26,093 nt of DNA from Candidatus Hermodarchaeota archaeon. Lineage in GTDB: Archaea; Asgardarchaeota; Heimdallarchaeia; Hodarchaeales; Hodarchaeaceae. The position numbers and the translations under genes were made by a program. The stretch covers positions 1-26,093 of the forward strand of contig JBHLKY010000037.1 of the NCBI GenBank assembly GCA_048886185.1, read 5' to 3'. Under the pieces are notes generated by a model. The model saw nothing but the letters and a program-made list of their open reading frames with translations, had not been told where the DNA came from and did not search any database. Position 1 is the stretch's first letter; each line of letters opens with the position of its first letter. Positions 1-14,907 of this stretch are shown here, one piece after another.

Positions 1-3000
1 GGCAGTAGACTATCCCATGAAATAGAAAGTTTTAATCAAGCTGGAAATGGAACACATGCTCACCTAATCGCTTGGGTTAGAATTCCTACTTTTTCAAGCA
101 CCAGGTCGAATGACATCTTTATGTATTATGGTAATAAAGCCGTGTTTAATCAAAAAAATGCTGTAAATGTTTGGAATTCGAATTATGTGGGAGTTTGGCA
201 TATGAATCAAGATCCATCAGGAATATCTCCTCAAATCAAAGATAGCACGTTGCCCTATACAGATGGGAATTCTTCTGGATCAATGACATCTGGTGATCTA
301 ATTACGGGCAAAATCGGAAATGCTTTAGACCTTGATGGAACAGATGATTATATTGATTTTGGTACAACTTCTGAGGTTACTATTACTGACGCATTGACCG
401 TTGAAACATGGTTTCGAGCTGATGATACTGGAAATACATATTTGATATCCAAAAATGGTCCTGGGCCTGATAAACGTTCATGGGATATCAGTTTTGACCC
501 TTACAATACTACACACGGTTTTATAATATTCCGATATGACACTGATGGAGTTCTACCTCATTATGGGGAAGTAGATAACGTTTATTATGAAAAAAATAAA
601 TGGTACCATGTTGTGGGCGTGTTTAATCCATCTAACTATTTGAGATTATACTTAGATGGTGATCTTGTTTATGACAATACAACAGCTGCAGCTTCTCAGT
701 ATGATGCAGGAAATCCTTTGCGATTTGGCACTAGGGGAGATACTCCACCTCCAGCGGATAGCTATTTTGATGGAATTATTGATGAAGTGCGTATATCTAA
801 TATTGCCCGCTCTGCTGACTGGATAAGCACTGAATATACCAATCAATATGACCCAGCAGGATTCTATACTCTCGGTATCGAGGAGGAAACATTATGGTGG
901 GAAGATGCATCATTTTCAATGAAAATGGACATTGGAATAAATAATACAAAAATTACTGGAACATTAACAGATTTTCCTCTCCTTATAGACATAACAGAGA
1001 GTGATCTTAAGACAGGAAAACTTCAAGCTGATGCTGATGACTTGTTATTTATTGATCCAAATGGGACAAAGCTAGATCATGAAATAGAATTCTTTAGTCA
1101 AGATAGTGTTGAAGGGCATCTCATAGCTTGGGTACGGTTACCACAACTATCAAGTTCCCAATATAATCTAATATCAATGTATTTTAACAATCCAAGTCTA
1201 CCGAGTCAAGAGAATCCTACTAAAGTATGGGATTCCAATTTCAAAGGGATTTGGCATTTGAATAATGATCCAGATGATCCAGCCCCTGAAATACTAGATA
1301 GTACCTCTAATGACAATGATGGAACTACTTACAATGGAATGACATCTAGTAATCTCATAAGTGGGATGATTGATGGTAGTTTAAACTTTAGTGATACATT
1401 AGACAATTACGTAAATTTTGGAGATCAAGCTTCATTAAATATGGGTGCTGGAGATTTATCACTTTCTTTGTGGGTGAATTATCCAAATTATGACCATAAT
1501 GGACCATTAGTTGGAAAAGGAGCATATGGAACTGGAGGGAAACGATACTATATAGCCATTGAAAATAATAGATTTAAGGGAGAAATAGATGATAATGGGG
1601 GTTCTGGAAAAAAAGTTATTAATACATCTCTTATTACTGAAAATAAGTGGTATCATGTTGAATTAGTGAGAGATGGCAACAATTTACGACTATATATTGA
1701 TGGGGTTGAGAGTGCTGGCTCACCGATTGATATAACTGGTTATGGTAATCTTGATATAGCTCTACCATTTTATATGAATACTCTACCAAGTGATACAGGT
1801 GGAACCCTCAGTGATTGGTCTGATAATATTATGGACGAAGTGCGGGTTTCTAACATTGCACGCTCCAGTAATTGGATTAAAACATCTTATAACAATCAGA
1901 AAGACTCATCAAGTTTTTATTCTATTGGATCAGTTTTATTTTTTGATTTAAGTCCCCCTATCATCAATGATTTTGGAATAGATGATCCAGGTACTGGAAC
2001 GGGGATATTTTGGGCTGATGTTAGAGATGAAGCATCAAGTGTTGTCACGGTCGACATTAATATCAATGGAAGCGTCTCATCTATGAGTTATAATGGTTCC
2101 CATTGGATATATCAACAATTAGTTGTCCTTGGCACGCTTTATGAATATAAAATTACCAATACTTCTGATAGTAAAGGAAATTATATATTAAATCCTTCAA
2201 ACATCAAACAGAATTATTTCACCAATGATGTAATATCTCCCACAGTAGATGAATGGGATTATTTTGATAATATAGGCGTATATGGAACTTTTCAAGCAAA
2301 TGTAAGTGATTCCTGGGGATTCATTGATACTGTTATTGTAAATGTTACAGAGTTGAATAGTGTACCCCGAAATGATTTATGGGCAATAATGGTGGTCAAC
2401 GGTTCAAGTCATGTGAATGATACGATTAGTATGCCCAAGGGCTCAGTATTTTGGTATGTTATAAGAGTTAATGATACTGCGGGAAATTCATTTACCACCT
2501 CACCTATCCCTGATGTTATCCCTGATGTTAATCATCCACCTGAGGCTCAAAACCTCGCCTTATCACGGGATAACTCTCTTATTCTCTTACCTGTCTATAG
2601 TAATTCTACATTATACCTACATTATGATTTTTACGATGCTGACAATGATAGTGAAGGGGGAACCGAAATTCGGTGGTATAAAAACGGGGTTTTACAAAAT
2701 TCATACAATAATTTAAAGCAAATCGGTAAAACTGACTTAATGAAAGGAGATCTTTGGAATGCAACAGTGAAACCCAAAGACGGCCAAGATTTTGGTACTC
2801 TAAGAACAACTGGAACAATAACAATCCAAAATACTCCACCAGTTGTCGAAAGTATTGTAATCCCAGCAAGTATGTCAACAGATAATCTTACAGTAACCAA
2901 TGTTACCACAGATGAGGATCTTGATCCTATCCTTAGCTATGAGATTAAATGGTACCGTAATTCAACATACATACCTAGCTTGGACAATCTATATTTAATC

Positions 3001-6000
3001 ACATCAGATAACACAAAAAAAGGAGAATCGTGGTCGTGTGAAATCCGTGCAAATGATGGGACAAATTATTCACAATGGGTAACATCTAATACCATTATAA
3101 TTAATAATTCGCCTCCTACTGCCTCAAATTTAGCTATATCTCCGCTTAATCCTAATACAAGTAGTACACTTACTTCTAGCTGGAATTTTGACGATGCAGA
3201 CAATGATAGTCAGGTTAATTATTATATTGAATGGTATCGTTGGGATACACATCAACCGATTTATGATAATTTAATAAATCTGCCATCATCCGCAACAACG
3301 AAAAATCAGGAGTGGTTTTTCAGAATAATTGTGAATGATGGTGAAAGTAACTCCACTAAATATTCCTCCCCAAAAGTAACAATTCAAAATACTCCTCCTA
3401 CAGCCTCAGGGTTAACTATTACTCAAGATCCTTTCACATACACTCCCTTATCTGCTAATTGGAATTTCAATGATGATGATGGTGATAGTCAACCAACTAA
3501 CAGCTGGATCATTCGATGGTATAAGAATAATGTACTCCAATCAGACTATAATAATTTAACAACAGTACCTGATGGTGCGACGAGTAAGGGAGAGGTTTGG
3601 AATTATACATTGAAGGTATATGATGGTACGAATTATTCGATACTATATTATTCTTCAATAAGTATCATTCAAAACTCCATTCCTACAGCTTCAGGAGTAA
3701 CCATAACCTTAACTCCAACCACAACTGAAAACATTACAGCTTCTTGGAATTATCACGATGATGATGATGATCCTCAAAATACTAGCTGGATTATATATTG
3801 GTTTAAGGATAATTCATTGCAAATATCTTACACCAACAAAACTATAGTTCCTGCGAGTGCTACCAGTAAAGGGGAGTTATGGAACTATACATTGAGAATC
3901 TTTGATGGCGAAGCTTATTCAATCCAATATAACTCGAGTATTACTCAAATAGTTAATTCACCTCCAGTAGTAATCACTCCATCCTTTAATAAAACTGTTA
4001 GCGTAACTACAGATGATACAATAAATATAACCTATACTTATTACGATCCTGATAATGATGCTGAAATTAGTAGTGGACGAGTAATTTATTGGTACCAAAA
4101 TAGCTTATATCGCATTGATAAACAAAATCAGACAGTTATATATGATTTTGAGACTACATCAGGTGAATACTGGCAGTATCAAATCAGAGTTTATGATGGA
4201 TTTGAGTGGAGTCAAAATTTTACATCAAATTTAGTTGTAATTGGAAACGCTCAAAATAATATTCCTGAAGTCCAAAATATTTCCCTCTCTGCGAACGAAA
4301 ACACTACATTAGATTCCATTAACCTTAATTATGATTATTACGATCAAGATGGACATCTACAAACCCAAATAGAAATATTTTGGTATAAAAATGGTGTTAT
4401 ACAAAGTGAATTAAATGATTCTATCGTGGTTGATTCCAGTTTTACTAATAAAGGGGAGATATGGAATTGTACAATCAGAGTGAGAGATGGGCTTAATTGG
4501 TCAATTCAATACAATTCCAGCAAACTATTAATTCTAAATGCAATCCCAATTGTTACAGAAATCAGCATTACATTAAATCCCACAACTGACCAAGATATAA
4601 CTGCAGGATGGACATATTACGATCCAGACAACGATCCTGAAAGTGATTGGATTATACTTTGGTATAAGAATGGTCAGTTACAGACATTATTAAACGATTC
4701 GAAAGTAATTAAATCAACTAATACTACTAAAGGAGAAATCTGGAACTACACAATACAAGTGTTTGACGGATTAGATTATTCAATCCAATATAATTCAACA
4801 CAGATTGTAATTGCAAATTCACCACCCTCGATAAGAAGCCCAGCCTATAATAAGACAATTGATGTTACTTCAGACCATTCCATCGAAATATCTTACACTT
4901 TCGATGATAAAGATGGAGATCTTGAAGATAAGAACAATAGAATTGTTTATTGGTATAAAGATACTGTTTATCAAGTTACAAAACCGAATCATTCAATTCT
5001 TTTCTATTATGAAACCATCGAAGGAGAAGTGTGGTATTATATAGTTAGGGTGTTCGATGGTACAGATTATAGCATAAATTACACTTCGGTTCCAGTCTCT
5101 ATAGGTGCTTCAACAAACGATCCTCCAACAGCTGAAAATTTGACATTGACTTTGAATCCAACAACACTAGACAATTTAAATGCCTATTATGATTATCAGG
5201 ATAATCAAAATCATGCAGAAGCTGGATCACTGATTCGATGGTATAAAAATGGTGAATTACAAGTTCATCTCAATGATACAAAATTGATACCTTCGAGTGA
5301 GACAAAAAAAGGTGAGATTTGGTATTTTACACTCCGACCAATGGATGGTCGAGACTATGGGCAGCTTTATATTTCATTAAATGTAACCATTTTGAATACT
5401 AAACCAATAGCTTCAGGTTTAACTCTTCCTTCCTCTCCAAGCACTGTTGATGACCTAACTATAACATGGTTGTACAGCGATGCTGACAATGACATCCAGA
5501 ATAATAGCTGGATTATTATATGGTACAAAAATAACCAAGTTCAAACTGCTTTCAATAATCTTATCACAGTTCCCTCAAGTTTCACTTCAAAAGGGGACTC
5601 ATGGAATTTTACACTCCAAGTTTTCGATGGAGAAGATTATTCAATTCAATATAATTCTTCAACTGTAGTTATCAAGAATACAATCCCTCAAATCGGTGAT
5701 TACACTTATCAATTTGATCCAAGTAATATTAGTTTAGTTGATCCAGAAATAAGATCCTCATTAACTGATCTCATCTTCTTCGTAGAAGATGAGGATATAT
5801 CAATTTACTATGTGTTTGAGGATGCAGACCTCCCGATTGACCAAGACAAATCATTAATTCAATGGTATTATCAACTTGATACTGGAACATGGATTGAGAT
5901 ATTAGTATATCAAAATTTGACCTCTATACCTCATTCTGAAACTTTTGCTGGGGATCACTGGAAATGTATTATTACTCCATTTGATGGTACAGAAATTGGG

Positions 6001-7452
6001 ACAGCAATTACCTTCCCAGAATTAGTCATTGAAAGTAGGCCAAAAATTGTTGATTGTATTATAACACCCCTTATCGTGAATAATGAAGGGAGCTATTTTG
6101 ATGAGGGAAGGTATGAAATAACAATTATCGCAACTAATCTCATCACTATTTCAAGTATAGAAATTCATCTGAATGACAGCCTTGAAGAGGTTTATTATGC
6201 TAGTCAAAGTTCGGATAATAGTTCTATCTGGACCCTAATATATCAATTACCAAAAGTTGACTTTAAAACAAAATATCTCGATAATAGACTGAATATAGAG
6301 GTTAAAGCAGAGAGTATTGTCATGTATGACTTGAAAGAGTTTGGCATAAACTCCCTTTATGAGGATTCGTTCATTGTAGAAGATCAATCACCACCTCGTA
6401 TTGTGGGAACACCACGATATGAGTTTAATGATGAAGAGAATCCTACAAACATCACCTTTTATGCTGATATTATTGATTATGGATCAGAAATCGCTGATGT
6501 CAGCATATTTTATTATTTTAAGGAATTTATCAGTGAAGGAGGAACTGGTTCCTCGGTGAGCGATAATTTGCGAAATGCAAGGATGGTTGCCATAAGTGAA
6601 ACAGACGGAACGTATAGGTACTCAATAACGGTTTTATTCGATCACAACAAGACATCACGAGAGATAATCTATTATATTCAAACAACAGACTCAAAAGGAA
6701 ATACAGGGATAGCATATGATATAAATAATGATCCAGACCGAATCAAAGATACCCGATTTACCTACATTCTTCCTGGTATTGATCCAACCTTTGTTCTGAT
6801 AATAGTGGGAGTCACAATTGTAACTGCTATCTTTGGATCGATAATTTATGTCAAATTTATTAGAAAACCCGAGATTGTTGGTCTTGATAAAGATTTAGTA
6901 ATGAACTCACTCTCAGAAGTCGAGGATAAAGAAATATGGAATTCGATAGATGATCATACAATTGGGATTGTGGTTTCATTCTTTGATCAACGCCATGGAC
7001 CGATCCCAATAATCATAGAGCCTGAAATTTTGAAGGACAATTTTTCAAAACTTGTAGAGTTATCTGATCGATCTTTCAGTAGTACTGGTTTTTGCGAAAA
7101 CTTCAATGCAGAAATAACCTCAAGCTATGACTTTGTATTAGCTCAAGGAACACGATCAAAAGTCATGTCATTTGGATTTGCGTTAGAACGGCCTGAAGCA
7201 AGAGGAGGTCAGGAAAATCTGACTGCCAATATTTTGATACATCAGGAACTCTTTCCATTGGTAAACCAATTTTTACTCAATATCCAACAGCAGATACACA
7301 TTATTCACAAACTAATGGATGAAACTGGAGATAAACCTGAGATTAAGACAAAGATTCAAAACCTTCGAACGTATATTTCAAGAATTATTTTATCCTATGA
7401 GAAAATATATGGCGATGCAGCGGAATTTATTGAAGAAGAAATGATGCATTAA
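1..7452 (+). CDS. Giant single-pass surface protein, 5'-truncated: (DUF2341-like + LamG/concanavalin-like) x2, Ig-like domains, 12 cadherin/Ig-like repeats, TM helix, cytoplasmic longin/uDENN-like domain
   Basis: Frame 1 has no stop from base 1 (GSRLSHEIESF...HLIAWVRIP...) to TAA at 7450-7452, so the ATG at 121 is internal. DUF2341-type motifs: L.HEIE.F...HLIAWVR.P, twice. LamG-type motifs: G.WH.N...DS, W.HV, YLDG/YIDG, G.IDEVR.S..ARS..WI.T.Y.NQ, twice. TM helix FVLIIVGVTIVTAIFGSIIYV followed by KFIRK at about 6790-6867. Confidence 0.93.
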   Translation, partial: GSRLSHEIESFNQAGNGTHAHLIAWVRIPTFSSTRSNDIFMYYGNKAVFNQKNAVNVWNSNYVGVWHMNQDPSGISPQIKDSTLPYTDGNSSGSMTSGDLITGKIGNALDLDGTDDYIDFGTTSEVTITDALTVETWFRADDTGNTYLISKNGPGPDKRSWDISFDPYNTTHGFIIFRYDTDGVLPHYGEVDNVYYEKNKWYHVVGVFNPSNYLRLYLDGDLVYDNTTAAASQYDAGNPLRFGTRGDTPPPADSYFDGIIDEVRISNIARSADWISTEYTNQYDPAGFYTLGIEEETLWWEDASFSMKMDIGINNTKITGTLTDFPLLIDITESDLKTGKLQADADDLLFIDPNGTKLDHEIEFFSQDSVEGHLIAWVRLPQLSSSQYNLISMYFNNPSLPSQENPTKVWDSNFKGIWHLNNDPDDPAPEILDSTSNDNDGTTYNGMTSSNLISGMIDGSLNFSDTLDNYVNFGDQASLNMGAGDLSLSLWVNYPNYDHNGPLVGKGAYGTGGKRYYIAIENNRFKGEIDDNGGSGKKVINTSLITENKWYHVELVRDGNNLRLYIDGVESAGSPIDITGYGNLDIALPFYMNTLPSDTGGTLSDWSDNIMDEVRVSNIARSSNWIKTSYNNQKDSSSFYSIGSVLFFDLSPPIINDFGIDDPGTGTGIFWADVRDEASSVVTVDININGSVSSMSYNGSHWIYQQLVVLGTLYEYKITNTSDSKGNYILNPSNIKQNYFTNDVISPTVDEWDYFDNIGVYGTFQANVSDSWGFIDTVIVNVTELNSVPRNDLWAIMVVNGSSHVNDTISMPKGSVFWYVIRVNDTAGNSFTTSPIPDVIPDVNHPPEAQNLALSRDNSLILLPVYSNSTLYLHYDFYDADNDSEGGTEIRWYKNGVLQNSYNNLKQIGKTDLMKGDLWNATVKPKDGQDFGTLRTTGTITIQNTPPVVESIVIPASMSTDNLTVTNVTTDEDLDPILSYEIKWYRNSTYIPSLDNLYLITSDNTKKGESWSCEIRANDGTNYSQWVTSNTIIINNSPPTASNLAISPLNPNTSSTLTSSWNFDDADNDSQVNYYIEWYRWDTHQPIYDNLINLPSSATTKNQEWFFRIIVNDGESNSTKYSSPKVTIQNTPPTASGLTITQDPFTYTPLSANWNFNDDDGDSQPTNSWIIRWYKNNVLQSDYNNLTTVPDGATSKGEVWNYTLKVYDGTNYSILYYSSISIIQNSIPTASGVTITLTPTTTENITASWNYHDDDDDPQNTSWIIYWFKDNSLQISYTNKTIVPASATSKGELWNYTLRIFDGEAYSIQYNSSITQIVNSPPVVITPSFNKTVSVTTDDTINITYTYYDPDNDAEISSGRVIYWYQNSLYRIDKQNQTVIYDFETTSGEYWQYQIRVYDGFEWSQNFTSNLVVIGNAQNNIPEVQNISLSANENTTLDSINLNYDYYDQDGHLQTQIEIFWYKNGVIQSELNDSIVVDSSFTNKGEIWNCTIRVRDGLNWSIQYNSSKLLILNAIPIVTEISITLNPTTDQDITAGWTYYDPDNDPESDWIILWYKNGQLQTLLNDSKVIKSTNTTKGEIWNYTIQVFDGLDYSIQYNSTQIVIANSPPSIRSPAYNKTIDVTSDHSIEISYTFDDKDGDLEDKNNRIVYWYKDTVYQVTKPNHSILFYYETIEGEVWYYIVRVFDGTDYSINYTSVPVSIGASTNDPPTAENLTLTLNPTTLDNLNAYYDYQDNQNHAEAGSLIRWYKNGELQVHLNDTKLIPSSETKKGEIWYFTLRPMDGRDYGQLYISLNVTILNTKPIASGLTLPSSPSTVDDLTITWLYSDADNDIQNNSWIIIWYKNNQVQTAFNNLITVPSSFTSKGDSWNFTLQVFDGEDYSIQYNSSTVVIKNTIPQIGDYTYQFDPSNISLVDPEIRSSLTDLIFFVEDEDISIYYVFEDADLPIDQDKSLIQWYYQLDTGTWIEILVYQNLTSIPHSETFAGDHWKCIITPFDGTEIGTAITFPELVIESRPKIVDCIITPLIVNNEGSYFDEGRYEITIIATNLITISSIEIHLNDSLEEVYYASQSSDNSSIWTLIYQLPKVDFKTKYLDNRLNIEVKAESIVMYDLKEFGINSLYEDSFIVEDQSPPRIVGTPRYEFNDEENPTNITFYADIIDYGSEIADVSIFYYFKEFISEGGTGSSVSDNLRNARMVAISETDGTYRYSITVLFDHNKTSREIIYYIQTTDSKGNTGIAYDINNDPDRIKDTRFTYILPGIDPTFVLIIVGVTIVTAIFGSIIYVKFIRKPEIVGLDKDLVMNSLSEVEDKEIWNSIDDHTIGIVVSFFDQRHGPIPIIIEPEILKDNFSKLVELSDRSFSSTGFCENFNAEITSSYDFVLAQGTRSKVMSFGFALERPEARGGQENLTANILIHQELFPLVNQFLLNIQQQIHIIHKLMDETGDKPEIKTKIQNLRTYISRIILSYEKIYGDAAEFIEEEMMH
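2530..6033 (+). repeat. 12 tandem ~92-119 aa Ig/cadherin-like protein repeats within the giant ORF
   Basis: Consensus N.PP.A..L.I.....T...L...(W/Y).Y.D.D.D.....I.WYKNG..Q..LN....V....T.KGE.W..T..V.DG..YS..Y.S..I.I. Units start at 2530, 2830, 3106, 3388, 3673, 3955, 4255, 4537, 4816, 5116, 5395 and 5677. Confidence 0.9.
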
Positions 7453-7688: not shown

Positions 7689-8405
7689 ATGAGGAATATG
7701 CTAAATCTAAAAACCAGAACATCCAAGCTAATTATAACCATAACGCTTGCAGTTATCTGTATGGTATTGTTTTTACTTATAGTAGCTGTAATAAATCCTG
7801 ATAGTTTGTATTGGGGCCTTTTTCTTACAACAGGCCAACTTGTTGCAACTTTGATCTTAATTAGGTTTCTGAATTTAAGTAAAGAAGATTTAGGATTAGC
7901 TTACAATAAATCGAAGTTTTACTTACATATATTATCCATTTTTTCACTACTAGTAATTGTCGTTTTTGTTAAATACCTTGTAGAAGGTGTACAGTCAGTA
8001 AATGATATTTCATTTACCGTAATGTATTATTTCTTCTTCTATATTGTTGTAGCAATAACCGAAGAATTATACTTCCGCGGTATTTTATATAATATCCTTG
8101 AGTCTTGGTCAAAATATGCTGCACTAATTGGATCAAGTGTTGTATTTGGATTATTTCATATTAGATCAGGATTAATCGTCGTTGTAATAATGATTTTCAC
8201 AGGGTTAAGTTTTGCTGTTGTTAGATATGTATCTGGTATGAATCACTTGCTAATCCCATTTCATTTCTTATTTAATTTTCAAAGTGCCTTGATTGTATTT
8301 AACGATTCTACAATGGTCTCAGGAACTCTATATTTAGGACTTTCTTTGTTAGTTGTAATAATCTTTGTCCTTATAGAATCAAGAACTGAGAAGAAGACTC
8401 CCTAA
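7689..8405 (+). CDS. CPBP family (Abi/CAAX type II) intramembrane glutamic protease
   Basis: Polytopic hydrophobic protein with the CPBP motifs AITEELYFRG (EExxxR), SSVVFGLFH (FxxxH) and HFLFN (HxxxN). Confidence 0.9.
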   Translation: MRNMLNLKTRTSKLIITITLAVICMVLFLLIVAVINPDSLYWGLFLTTGQLVATLILIRFLNLSKEDLGLAYNKSKFYLHILSIFSLLVIVVFVKYLVEGVQSVNDISFTVMYYFFFYIVVAITEELYFRGILYNILESWSKYAALIGSSVVFGLFHIRSGLIVVVIMIFTGLSFAVVRYVSGMNHLLIPFHFLFNFQSALIVFNDSTMVSGTLYLGLSLLVVIIFVLIESRTEKKTP

Positions 8406-12689: not shown

Positions 12690-13181
12690 TCATTTATTTG
12701 TTCGCAAAATAAGAAGACTGCACTCTTCAAGAACATTCCGAAAAACATGGATTTCATCCGCAAACATTTCATAATAAGAGACATTCAACTCTTTTGCTAA
12801 TTTCACTCCTTCTTCTGTAGTTACTGTCTCGGATTCGCTATTTATCCCCAATAGAATAATTGGCGGATAAGATGAAACAATTTTTCGATATTCGTGATAA
12901 TGTGCTTTTGCCGCTTCAAACGAAAGGCGATTTTCCTTATCAAAAAGGATTATCGCCCCAAAGGAATCAGTTAAAGTTCTGGTCAAGTAAAGATTATTAC
13001 CGCGGACTGGAGTAATCCAAATACTTCGGATAATGTTTTGGCTATTTATTTCAATGTCTTCCCTTATGTAATTACCAATATTTATCAAGTAATCTGGCGT
13101 TTTTGTAAGTAAATAATCACGAATTATCTTGGAAGAAAGTAATGGATCAGCAATAATATTTATTTTGATGGTCTTGGGCAT
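12690..13181 (-). CDS. Rab/Ras-fold small GTPase-like protein with degenerate G-motifs (putative pseudo-GTPase)
   Basis: Rab-like scaffold segments KINII, SIW, GAIILFD.ENRLSFE, PPIILLG and VTTEEG..LAKEL.VSYYE occur in the expected order. GxxxxGKS, DxxG, NKxD and SAK are absent. Confidence 0.72.
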   Translation of the reverse strand: MPKTIKINIIADPLLSSKIIRDYLLTKTPDYLINIGNYIREDIEINSQNIIRSIWITPVRGNNLYLTRTLTDSFGAIILFDKENRLSFEAAKAHYHEYRKIVSSYPPIILLGINSESETVTTEEGVKLAKELNVSYYEMFADEIHVFRNVLEECSLLILRTNK

Positions 13182-13752: not shown

Positions 13753-14907
13753 GTGAAGACAATGAAAAGAATAGTATTTTTTATCCTCATAGTACTATCA
13801 GCTCTATTATTAATTTTTCTTTTTGCGGCTCTCTTCCAAATGACTGAAACGGATGAATCCGAAATTGATCCTAATTCTCCTCCAGTTCCTGAATTTAAAG
13901 ATCATATTATACAAAGTGGATTATTTGGTCCTCTCTATGTGTCAACAATAGATTTAGACCAGGATTCCGATAATGATATTTTAGCAACAATCTTTCACGA
14001 GAACAAAGTTGTTTGGTATGAGAATAGAGGGAATAAAAATTTTCAGGAACATGTTATTGATAATGATTGTAAGCAAGCAGCTTGTGTTCATGGAACCGAT
14101 CTTGATAATGATGGTGATCTTGATATCATAGCCTCCTCTGTAGTAGAAGGCATTTTTTATTACAAAAACCTTGGAAACAACTATTTTGAACAGTTTCCAC
14201 TCAATGAATCCCTAGTTGATTGTTTTATTATCATACCAGTCGATGTGAATCATGATAACCTTATTGATATAGTTGCAGCACAACGAACAAATATTACCGT
14301 CTTATGGATCAATCAGGGCAATTTTTTCTTCACTCGACACACATTAACTGATAATCCAAATATGGTTAGGTATGTTTGTTCTGCAGATCTAGATAATGAT
14401 CAAGATGTTGATATAGCAGCAATATCTGTTAATGGTTATATATTCTGGTTAGAAAATCAAGGCTTCGTCAATTTCTCACAACATAATATTGAATCAGGTT
14501 ATATGGGAGGTCACGGTATTTATGCATGTGATTTTGATAATGATGATGATATTGACATAATTACGTGTGCAAGTGAAAATAATGAAGTTAATTGGTTTGA
14601 AAATAATGGGAGTGGTAATTTTTCAAAAAATGATATAGATACACAAACTCTAGATCCTGGATATGTTCATTGCTCAGACCTAAATAATAATGGATTTGTA
14701 GATATTATTGGAATGTCGTTTGAATTTAAACAGTTGTTCTGGTGGCAACATTTAGAGAATCACAGTTGTATTCGCCACATCATACACGAAGATTACGCAG
14801 GAACTATGTGTACGACTGGAGACATTGATAATGATGGGGACATGGATATTGTTGCTAGTGATTATCTCAATGGATTTATCTATTGGTGGGAAAATCTTCT
14901 AATATGA
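13753..14907 (+). CDS. N-terminally membrane-anchored FG-GAP/VCBS-repeat beta-propeller protein (7 repeats)
   Basis: Hydrophobic N-terminus MKRIVFFILIVLSALLLIFLFAALF; seven D(L/I/V/F)(D/N)xDxxxDI-type motifs, each followed by (W/Y).EN.G...F..H.I-type segments. The start may be the ATG at 13762. Confidence 0.88.
   Translation: MKTMKRIVFFILIVLSALLLIFLFAALFQMTETDESEIDPNSPPVPEFKDHIIQSGLFGPLYVSTIDLDQDSDNDILATIFHENKVVWYENRGNKNFQEHVIDNDCKQAACVHGTDLDNDGDLDIIASSVVEGIFYYKNLGNNYFEQFPLNESLVDCFIIIPVDVNHDNLIDIVAAQRTNITVLWINQGNFFFTRHTLTDNPNMVRYVCSADLDNDQDVDIAAISVNGYIFWLENQGFVNFSQHNIESGYMGGHGIYACDFDNDDDIDIITCASENNEVNWFENNGSGNFSKNDIDTQTLDPGYVHCSDLNNNGFVDIIGMSFEFKQLFWWQHLENHSCIRHIIHEDYAGTMCTTGDIDNDGDMDIVASDYLNGFIYWWENLLI

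Follow-up and report, generated by a model that had tools for sequence, protein, structure and literature searches.

Can a protein on the surface of an archaeal cell act directly on the small GTPases inside it? The question is raised by a giant gene at the start of contig JBHLKY010000037.1 (hereafter C37) in the genome of a member of the Hodarchaeales, Candidatus Hermodarchaeota archaeon (GCA_048886185.1). The assembly is a metagenome-type bin of 75 contigs and 4.84 Mb, 96% complete and with 4.96% contamination; the window analysed here is the first 26 kb of C37 (26,093 nucleotides). Frame 1 of the plus strand is open from base 1 and encodes 2483 residues (translation of 1..7452(+)). A first-pass annotation, made from the DNA letters, had read this gene as a surface receptor with a single transmembrane (TM) helix and a tail of about 200 residues, ending in a longin domain like those of folliculin (FLCN) and SMCR8, which are subunits of GTPase-activating proteins (GAPs). 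Of this picture of a receptor wired to a GAP module, the fusion of a giant ectodomain, a TM helix, and a GAP-type longin domain stands; that the tail acts as a GAP is something we infer. On balance, we lean towards a receptor-tethered longin GAP for Rag-like GTPases.

Longin GAPs act in nutrient sensing, where Rag and Arf GTPases are under their control, and they have links to disease (Birt-Hogg-Dube syndrome, epilepsies, and amyotrophic lateral sclerosis/frontotemporal dementia). To our knowledge, FLCN-FNIP, GATOR1, and C9orf72-SMCR8 are the only longin-based GAPs known. The eukaryotic counterparts are soluble and not receptor tails; no eukaryotic counterpart is known for a giant cell-surface protein with a GAP-type longin built in.

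How much of the receptor does the window contain? The 5' end of the gene is missing, cut at the start of C37. In a congener (G071) the orthologous protein is 3671 residues long, with 66.8% identity across 2480 residues. Its first 1204 residues match the minus strand of another contig of the same assembly, C53 (62.6%), in a match that runs off the start of that contig. The open reading frame (ORF) found there, C53 3..3587(-), has 1195 codons and an open 3' end, and is 62.6% identical to residues 32-1204 of the G071 orthologue. We infer that this ORF is the missing N-terminal third of the gene and that C53 and C37 abut. As it would supply the first 1195 codons or so, the receptor would be a protein of about 3680 residues. 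This estimate replaces the earlier figure of >2200 residues, as the contig begins inside the gene.

Topology, fold and motifs of the tail

On which side of the membrane does the tail lie? The segment FVLIIVGVTIVTAIFGSIIYV is the sole strongly hydrophobic 19-residue window among the 2483 residues, at about 6790-6852 as first reported, and the tail that follows it has 199 residues. The ectodomain carries 64 N-x-S/T sequons, where 36.7 would be expected from its composition, and full-length homologues combine a hydrophobic N-terminal segment with a single TM helix near the C-terminus. With one TM helix, an N-terminal part rich in sequons, and a basic flank (KFIRK) where the tail begins, the protein most probably has its tail inside the cell; the positive-inside rule and the sequon bias both point to type I topology, in agreement with the cytoplasmic placement in the first-pass annotation. 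In the juxtamembrane segment R4, K5, G10, L11, and D12 (tail numbering) are invariant in an alignment of 30 homologues (A2).

What fold does the tail adopt? An AlphaFold 2 (AF2) model built on A2, trimmed to the tail, has a predicted local distance difference test score (pLDDT) of 87.1 and a predicted template modelling score (pTM) of 0.84. It contains helices at 9-18 and 25-35, strands at 36-45 and 49-56, a helix at 58-78, strands at 88-95, 101-112, and 120-130, and helices at 131-138, 141-157, 161-186, and 189-198. As modelled, this is the longin order beta-beta-alpha-beta-beta-beta-alpha-alpha plus a short N-terminal extension: two helices follow the sheet, as in longins, but there are helices at the N-terminus too (the roadblock order is alpha-beta-beta-alpha-beta-beta-beta-alpha). 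The full-length architecture of FLCN or SMCR8 is not found, as there is no DENN domain and the protein ends 13 residues past the last longin helix.

Two structural searches were made with the model. Foldseek against the PDB ranked first 6ulg_N, from the entry of FLCN-FNIP2 with Rag and Ragulator (E 2.5e-5), followed by GATOR1 entries, the active FLCN complex, a Lokiarchaeota longin, and the SEA complex. VIA-align, which is independent of Foldseek, was run against 48,161 representative chains. Its best match was the Lokiarchaeota longin 8yqg (Z 14.0, root-mean-square deviation (rmsd) 2.9, 140 residues aligned, 14% identity), and it also returned 6nzd_H (Z 12.0), 7o2w_A (11.6), Lst4 (10.9), GATOR1 8fw5_B (10.7), SEA 8adl_S (10.4), 6lt0_B (10.0), and 6ulg_N (9.6). 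Judging by residue range, 6nzd_H (2..268) would be FLCN, 6ulg_N (41..396) FNIP2, 7o2w_A (18..196) C9orf72, and 6lt0_B (57..357) SMCR8. Across the VIA-align runs, which ranked the matches alike, Z was 12.0-12.8 for FLCN-complex chains, 10.0-11.8 for C9orf72-SMCR8 entries, and about 10.7-11.3 for GATOR1. DENND1A reached 9.4, the longins of TRAPP, AP5 sigma, VAMP7, and Ykt6 reached 8.6 or less, and Roadblock chains 6.1-6.6. When classes are compared, eight GAP-class longins (Z 9.6-14.0) come ahead of the SNARE, TRAPP, adaptor-sigma, and Mon1-Ccz1 longins. The longin-class fold proposed in the first reading is thus reproduced by the model, whose best solved matches are of the FLCN/C9orf72-SMCR8/NPRL2 class.

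LOV/PAS, GAF, and LuxR ligand-binding domains also occur in the Foldseek and VIA-align lists; they were rejected, with Z 7.1 or less and without the longin helix order. In the ESM Atlas, the top cluster of a shape search consists of Heimdall proteins, 23% of which carry PF11704 (Pfam Folliculin). Language-model features pointed to an archaeal cluster in which 19% of members carry NPR2 (0.88), to fungal LST7 (0.80), and to a cluster with Pfam NPR2 (63%) and C9orf72-like (16%) labels (0.77); such feature-search neighbours are leads only.

Does the tail carry the motifs of GAP longins? The segment IGIVVSFFDQRHGPIPIIIEP / IGIVVSFFDQRHGPIP begins at nucleotide 6961, and KVMSFGFALERPEARGGQENLTANILI / FGFALERPEARGGQENLT carries the Arg codon AGA at 7201-7203; on reading the DNA, both motifs and all coordinates given earlier were found to be correct. 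FLCN, NPRL2, SMCR8, and C9orf72 have the GP motif where the beta1-beta2 loop ends or beta2 starts, and it is absent in FNIP2, NPRL3, and non-GAP longins (PMC12290439). SMCR8 R147, which has been equated with FLCN R164, is located in the betaL4-betaL5 loop (10.1101/2020.04.16.045708). The model places tail R117 between strands 101-112 and 120-130, in the loop equivalent to that of R164 and R147, as had been proposed. In NPRL2 the residue for comparison is R78. The Arg loop is the lowest-confidence part of the modelled core (block pLDDT 72), which is typical of a mobile loop.

Both motifs are very well conserved. Among 159 full-length copies of the domain, G49 and P52 are kept in all 159, R117 in 156, P50 and E121 in 154 each, N122 in 151, and G118 in 146; conservation of the Arg among homologues had been named as a point on which the first reading would depend. 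Since the domain was found in 185 cluster representatives and keeps 47-72% identity across 61 database proteins, the motifs are evidently no chance pattern. By its modelled fold and both signature motifs, the domain belongs to the GAP-type longin class.

How far can the relationship to FLCN be followed in sequence? The tail, both by itself and as a profile of 30 sequences, was compared by HMMER with Pfam and with every PDB chain sequence, and matched nothing meaningful; EXTL2 (E 0.04) and JNK (0.24) were dismissed as chance-level matches. Neither the tail nor 30 close homologues match PF11704 even at E up to 10. Two divergent tails of this genome, encoded on contig C13, score 19.0 and 18.6 bits against Pfam Folliculin, short of the gathering cut-off of 23.3 bits, over the stretch from strand 4 through the Arg loop to strand 5 and the following helix (profile positions 48-115). 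The cut-off is passed, at 27.8 bits and in the same profile region, by a soluble 437-residue protein with the motifs IIFDEEHGP and DDPEARG (C6, L016 625-1938 -). This protein belongs to a family of 76, mostly with a precomputed PF11704 label. Located 570 bp upstream on the same strand is a gene for a 158-residue Roadblock/LC7-like protein (C6, L016 2508-2984 -; E 4.8e-4, 20.2 bits, below the 23-bit cut-off).

With hhalign, the tail profile aligned with the single C6 protein at E 0.016 (probability 2.8%) and with the C6 family alignment at E 8.7e-4 (probability 23%). In the latter case the Arg loops are paired residue for residue, tail R117 with R99 of the soluble Folliculin homologue. This link is a weak bridge and no proof, though it is consistent with the structural result. 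From the other end, a profile of the soluble Asgard FLCN-like family did not retrieve human FLCN from the PDB (best E 0.9, to unrelated chains), and the single C6 protein found nothing there.

Rag-like GTPases as putative partners

If the tail is a GAP, which GTPase would it serve? The genome has 66 Arf-profile matches and 11 strong Gtr1_RagA matches. Gene linkage was counted at 49 tail loci from 11 genomes in three genera, as a match to PF04670 (Gtr1_RagA) within 3 kb. Such a match was found at 14 of the 49 loci, against 0.63 expected (formal Poisson P 1e-14). We argue that a functional link between the tail and Rag-like GTPases is real, because at least six different arrangements are seen across the three genera.

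The arrangements are as follows. A paralogue of 2131 residues on contig C9 starts 24 bp after a 300-residue Rag-like gene, and the same pair is repeated in the congener G063. In two other congeners (G070 and G071), a Rag-like gene of 300 residues comes directly downstream of the orthologue of the window's gene, with the Gtr1_RagA match 72 bp beyond that orthologue; in G071 the ORF itself begins 57 bp past the stop of the orthologue. In G074 a Rag-like fusion gene of 729 residues lies upstream of a tail gene of 2580 residues, at a distance of 239 bp. Five genomes of another family have rows of one to three tail genes, and within about 250 bp after the row comes a gene with a Rag-like domain at its start; where the contig extends further (G015, G033, and G019) a convergent Rag-like gene of about 410 residues comes next. 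In several genomes the Rag-like G domains that adjoin tail genes are continued by 300-550 further residues without a Pfam match (Table 1).

The closest homologue of the linked GTPase in this genome (70%) is a 301-residue protein encoded on contig C28; the motifs of this Rag-like family (GLGASGKS, DCGGQE, and HKxD) are intact. The tail (A2) was co-folded with this GTPase (A4, 40 sequences), GTP, and Mg in three runs, alongside three controls. The score was 0.68, compared with 0.01 for the best control. Of 80 solved complexes, 58 score as high as this, and so do 2 of 110 mismatched pairs; these counts hold roughly, as the calibration was made without ligands or user alignments. Agreement between the runs is at least 100% of contacts, and the pLDDT of the partner is at least 85. 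On the tail side, the predicted interface comprises residues 44-51 (the GP turn), 68-80 (helix alpha1), and 117-120 and 122 (the Arg loop); on the GTPase side it comprises 14-16 (P-loop), 37-43 (switch I), and 64-67 and 70 (switch II, with Gln64). This predicted geometry is that of a GAP. Co-folding with a small GTPase of the same genome, as envisaged in the first-pass annotation, was thus passed, which shows a likeness to known complexes and not binding by this copy. Together, the gene linkage and the GAP-like interface strengthen the case for GAP activity.

How might such a receptor work? The gene would encode a type I surface glycoprotein of about 3680 residues, with a signal peptide (on C53), LamG-type lectin-like modules, eleven repeats, a TM helix, and the 199-residue tail, a longin of FLCN/SMCR8/NPRL2 type held beneath the cell membrane. 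The tail would dock on the GTP form of a Rag-like (Gtr1/RagA-family) GTPase, over the nucleotide pocket, by way of the GP turn, alpha1, and the Arg loop, and R2401 (tail R117) would complete the active site as an arginine finger and speed GTP hydrolysis. Events at the ectodomain, such as ligand binding, contact, or clustering, could then set the local GTP/GDP state of Rag-like switches. Control of the tail by the ectodomain, for example through clustering as in plexins, is speculation.

Could the tail hold GTPases without acting on them? As a non-catalytic anchor, it would recruit or retain Rag-like GTPases, or longin/roadblock proteins, at the membrane in the manner of Ragulator, by which Rag dimers are tethered to the lysosome, and the Arg and GP motifs would serve binding. 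The TM helix does fix the tail to the membrane, Rag-like genes are linked to tail loci, and longin and roadblock folds are commonly platforms for GTPases (PMC10933270). One source, moreover, names the 300-residue Rag-like proteins Roadblock/LC7/MglB-family regulators, a name that suggests a roadblock in their C-terminal part, one that could pair with a longin. However, the predicted interface involves the G domain, at the P-loop and the two switches, and not the C-terminal part, and roadblock structures match the tail worse (Z 6.6 or less) than GAP longins do. The GP motif and loop Arg are, furthermore, a signature of GAP longins that is not shared by the non-catalytic FNIP2 and NPRL3 or by other longins (PMC12290439). 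We regard an anchor of this kind as unlikely.

A different regulator or a different client is also conceivable: a longin that resembles guanine nucleotide exchange factors (GEFs) or effectors, as in DENN, TRAPP, and Mon1-Ccz1, or a GAP for Arf- or Ras-like GTPases. Most longin modules are parts of GEFs, DENND1A/B still align with the tail (Z 9.1-9.5), and the clients of C9orf72-SMCR8, which matches the tail closely in structure, are Arf and Rab and not Rag. The abundance of Arf-profile matches in this genome and an archaeal cluster of Arf/Ras GTPase fusions among the ESM Atlas neighbours point the same way. Against this, the linkage is specific to PF04670 Rag-like genes, and the co-fold with a Rag-like GTPase, the sole GTPase tried, passes its controls; we consider this explanation improbable.

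Several points weigh against a GAP for Rag-like GTPases. Because the genomes in the comparison are related, the P value for linkage overstates their independence, and 35 of the 49 tail loci are unlinked, though many of these are contig fragments. No Rag-like gene was found on C37 or C53, beside the receptor gene or elsewhere on them, and the congener G067 is likewise without one beside its receptor gene. The homology between the tail and FLCN rests on fold, motifs, and weak bridges, without a match to Pfam Folliculin or, in HMMER, to the PDB. The conserved Arg of the loop could serve binding and not catalysis, and the co-fold may recall the solved FLCN-RagC, GATOR1-RagA, and C9orf72-SMCR8-ARF1 complexes. 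Finally, eukaryotic longin GAPs act as heterodimers whose catalytic pocket is formed with a second longin subunit (FNIP, NPRL3, or C9orf72). Candidates for a second subunit here are another tail, the soluble C6 protein, and a 344-residue protein encoded on C28.

The C28 candidate has the motif IFDDSGP, and its gene (L027 784-1818(+)) is convergent with that of the 301-residue Rag-like GTPase (L027 1843-2748 -), 24 bp apart. The same pair is present in G071 (L025 16179-18004). The 344-residue protein has no Pfam hit and is possibly a GP-type longin.

Within the window, 5 kb downstream of the receptor gene, there is a further GTPase-like ORF of 163 residues (12690-13181(-)), which matches Pfam Ras (E 1.1e-8) only from residue 39 on. 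It has INIIADPLLSSK in place of the P-loop GxxxxGK[ST], WITPVRG for DxxGQ, and GINSE for NKxD, and looks like a degenerate, probably nucleotide-free small-GTPase fold. It is the only candidate partner in the window, lacks the P-loop, and was rejected as evidence for this locus, as C37 and C53 carry no Rag-like gene.

The tail family and its known relatives

How widespread is the tail? In a profile search of 1.84 billion representatives, 142 of the 185 proteins of the family were found at E 1e-10 or better. The domain ends at most 15 residues from the C-terminus in all 159 full-coverage copies, in proteins of 174 (fragments) to 5809 residues. A strongly hydrophobic segment, like the TM helix of this receptor, lies directly upstream in 125 of the 135 copies that have enough upstream sequence. 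Nine proteins of 280-393 residues (P0122, P0126, P0130, P0132, P0135, P0136, P0176, P0200, and P0114) have the domain at the C-terminus with no preceding hydrophobic segment, and look like soluble variants. Close homologues carry the source names Hodarchaeales, Hodarchaeum mangrovi, Kariarchaeaceae, and other Heimdall-group labels. The family has its centre in Heimdallarchaeia. When 400 genomes of the phylum were counted, the genus of the genome studied here had the domain in 20 of 21 (1 to 8 copies each), and two other families within that class had it in 22 of 31 and 8 of 12; outside these groups it turned up in just 5 genomes.

The genome studied here has eight profile matches to the tail. 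On C13 (1-14398), three co-oriented giant genes (2227, 1563, and 1007 residues) follow each other with a 6-nt gap and then an 8-nt overlap. Each of them ends in a divergent copy of the tail, and the copy that closes the third gene is a weak ninth.

Might the TM helix and tail be simply a common anchor to the machinery of secretion, glycosylation, or surface assembly, with no GTPase role? Such a cassette would be shared, as is seen here, by eight giant proteins of one genome with differing ectodomains. The tail is also much more conserved than the ectodomain: among paralogues, ectodomain identity is 32-35%, while the profile matches of the tails range from E-80 to E-105. At many loci, too, a GTPase neighbour is lacking. 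A sorting or assembly module would, however, leave unexplained the near-invariant GP and Arg of a GAP-type longin, the enrichment of Rag-like neighbours, and the soluble relatives of 280-390 residues without a TM helix. We consider it very improbable.

Which known system does the proposed receptor GAP resemble most? FLCN (yeast Lst7) is the GAP subunit for RagC/D (Gtr2) in FLCN-FNIP2. Its longin fold is shared by the tail (rmsd 2.6-2.8 over 134 residues, at the Z given above), and the range of the FLCN-complex chain matched by the tail, 2..268, includes R164. Further FLCN-like features are the GP turn after strand 1, the conserved Arg in the loop between strands 4 and 5, the link to Rag-family genes, and the predicted docking on P-loop and switches. 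The presence of a longin without a DENN domain is a likeness to Lst7, as the yeast protein has a longin domain only (10.1101/2020.04.16.045708). In contrast to FLCN, the tail is part of a single-pass surface protein and not a soluble subunit, lacks DENN, falls below PF11704 detection, and has two extra helices after the TM segment; no FNIP-like partner was identified.

NPRL2 in GATOR1 (chains of 362-370 residues) and SMCR8/C9orf72, where the client of SMCR8 is Arf/Rab, are of the same structural class. They share the logic of a GP motif plus arginine finger with the tail (PMC12290439), at an identity of only 3-15%. Unlike the membrane-tethered tail, they act in large soluble complexes that are recruited to lysosomes. 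The best structural match, the Lokiarchaeota Roadblock-Longin protein (8yqg), is also from an Asgard archaeon, and is a crystal dimer by its entry title; in contrast to the receptor it is a soluble two-domain protein, and its likeness to the tail is one of fold.

Plexins are single-pass receptors of animals with a cytoplasmic GAP domain for Rap/Ras GTPases. They share the logic proposed here: the ectodomain is large, the TM helix single, and the activity of the intracellular GAP domain dependent on receptor clustering. Their GAP domain has a RasGAP-like helical fold unrelated to longin, and they differ in client GTPase and domain of life, so that the comparison is an analogy only.

Are longins of this kind new to archaea? 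FLCN/SMCR8-type longins with both GP and Arg have been described in Asgard archaea including Heimdallarchaeia (PMC12290439, Traffic 2025); the Arg motif of the C6 protein, DDPEARG, compares with ERPEARGG in the tail. The tail family is a separate, membrane-tethered, and always C-terminal branch. The text of that paper contains neither "transmembrane" nor "membrane-anchored", and asks which Asgard GTPases such longins serve (PMC12290439). Some of its 15 Asgard entries may be fragments of receptors like the one described here. A literature search of incomplete coverage found no report of a receptor-longin fusion or of Rag linkage in Asgard archaea. FLCN-type longins were already known in this group, and the receptor fusion and the linkage to Rag-like genes seem to be unreported. 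To the question about clients, a testable answer can be offered: the 300-residue Rag-like GTPases (with HKxD and an intact P-loop and Gln), the residue R2401, and the predicted interface.

If the receptor-tethered GAP is real, regulation of Rag GTPases by longin GAPs would be older than eukaryotes, and its archaeal state would have been coupled to the cell surface and not to an internal organelle. A more far-reaching proposal is that Heimdallarchaeia have plexin-like receptor-GAPs that directly switch off Rag-like GTPases according to ectodomain input. These would be a plasma-membrane forerunner of the FLCN/GATOR1-Rag axis, with the longin GAP first a receptor tail and only later a soluble complex recruited to lysosomes. 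We put this forward tentatively, as less likely than not.

The ectodomain and the surroundings of the gene

What does the extracellular part consist of? Within the first 600 residues of the window reading there are matches to Pfam Laminin_G_3 (E 5e-40), DUF2341, and Laminin_G_2. In an alignment of the eleven tandem repeats (Table 1), D-x-D-N-D, WYKN, GExW, and DG positions are conserved. The AF2 model of a repeat is a beta sandwich (pLDDT 85.6), and its best Foldseek matches are weak ones to fibronectin type III and Ig-like domains (E 7e-3 and above, template modelling score about 0.5). The repeats may be Fn3/Ig-like, a weak assignment that can be made no closer.

Table 1. Features of the receptor gene in the window, and Rag-like fusion genes beside tail genes at other loci
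Feature	Position	Strand	Description
Extracellular part	1..6762	+	residues 1-2254 of the window reading; continues on C53 3..3587(-)
Eleven tandem beta-sandwich repeats of about 95 residues	2575..5715	+	residues 859-1905; spacing 92-97 residues, from alignment
Single TM helix FVLIIVGVTIVTAIFGSIIYV	6790..6852	+	residues 2264-2284; followed by KFIRK
Juxtamembrane segment KFIRKPEIVGLDKDLV...	6853..6957	+	tail residues 1-35; basic stop-transfer flank, two short helices
Longin core	6958..7410	+	tail 36-186; beta1 (36-45) to helix 161-186 in the AF2 model
GP motif, G2333-P2334 (tail G49-P50)	6997..7002	+	within FFDQRHGPIP; beta1-beta2 turn, opens strand 49-56
Arg loop RPEARGGQEN (tail 113-122)	7189..7218	+	beta4-beta5 loop; candidate arginine finger R2401 (tail R117)
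Short acidic C-terminal end and stop	7411..7452	+	from translation; TAA at 7450-7452
Rag-like fusion genes	L024 5991-7463; L026 10467-12422; L023 9969-12158; L019 1876-3570; L022 14378-16600		300-550 residues beyond the G domain, without a Pfam match

Directly 3' of the receptor gene, the window encodes a membrane protein of the Rce1-like CAAX prenyl endopeptidase family (7689-8405(+), E 1.5e-13). The locus has undergone rearrangement, since in G070 and G071 this downstream position is taken by the Rag-like GTPase gene. Further downstream (13753-14907(+)) lies a gene whose product, secreted or anchored, has five FG-GAP-like repeats (Pfam FG-GAP_3, E 1.8e-32), a beta-propeller motif of the integrin-alpha type.

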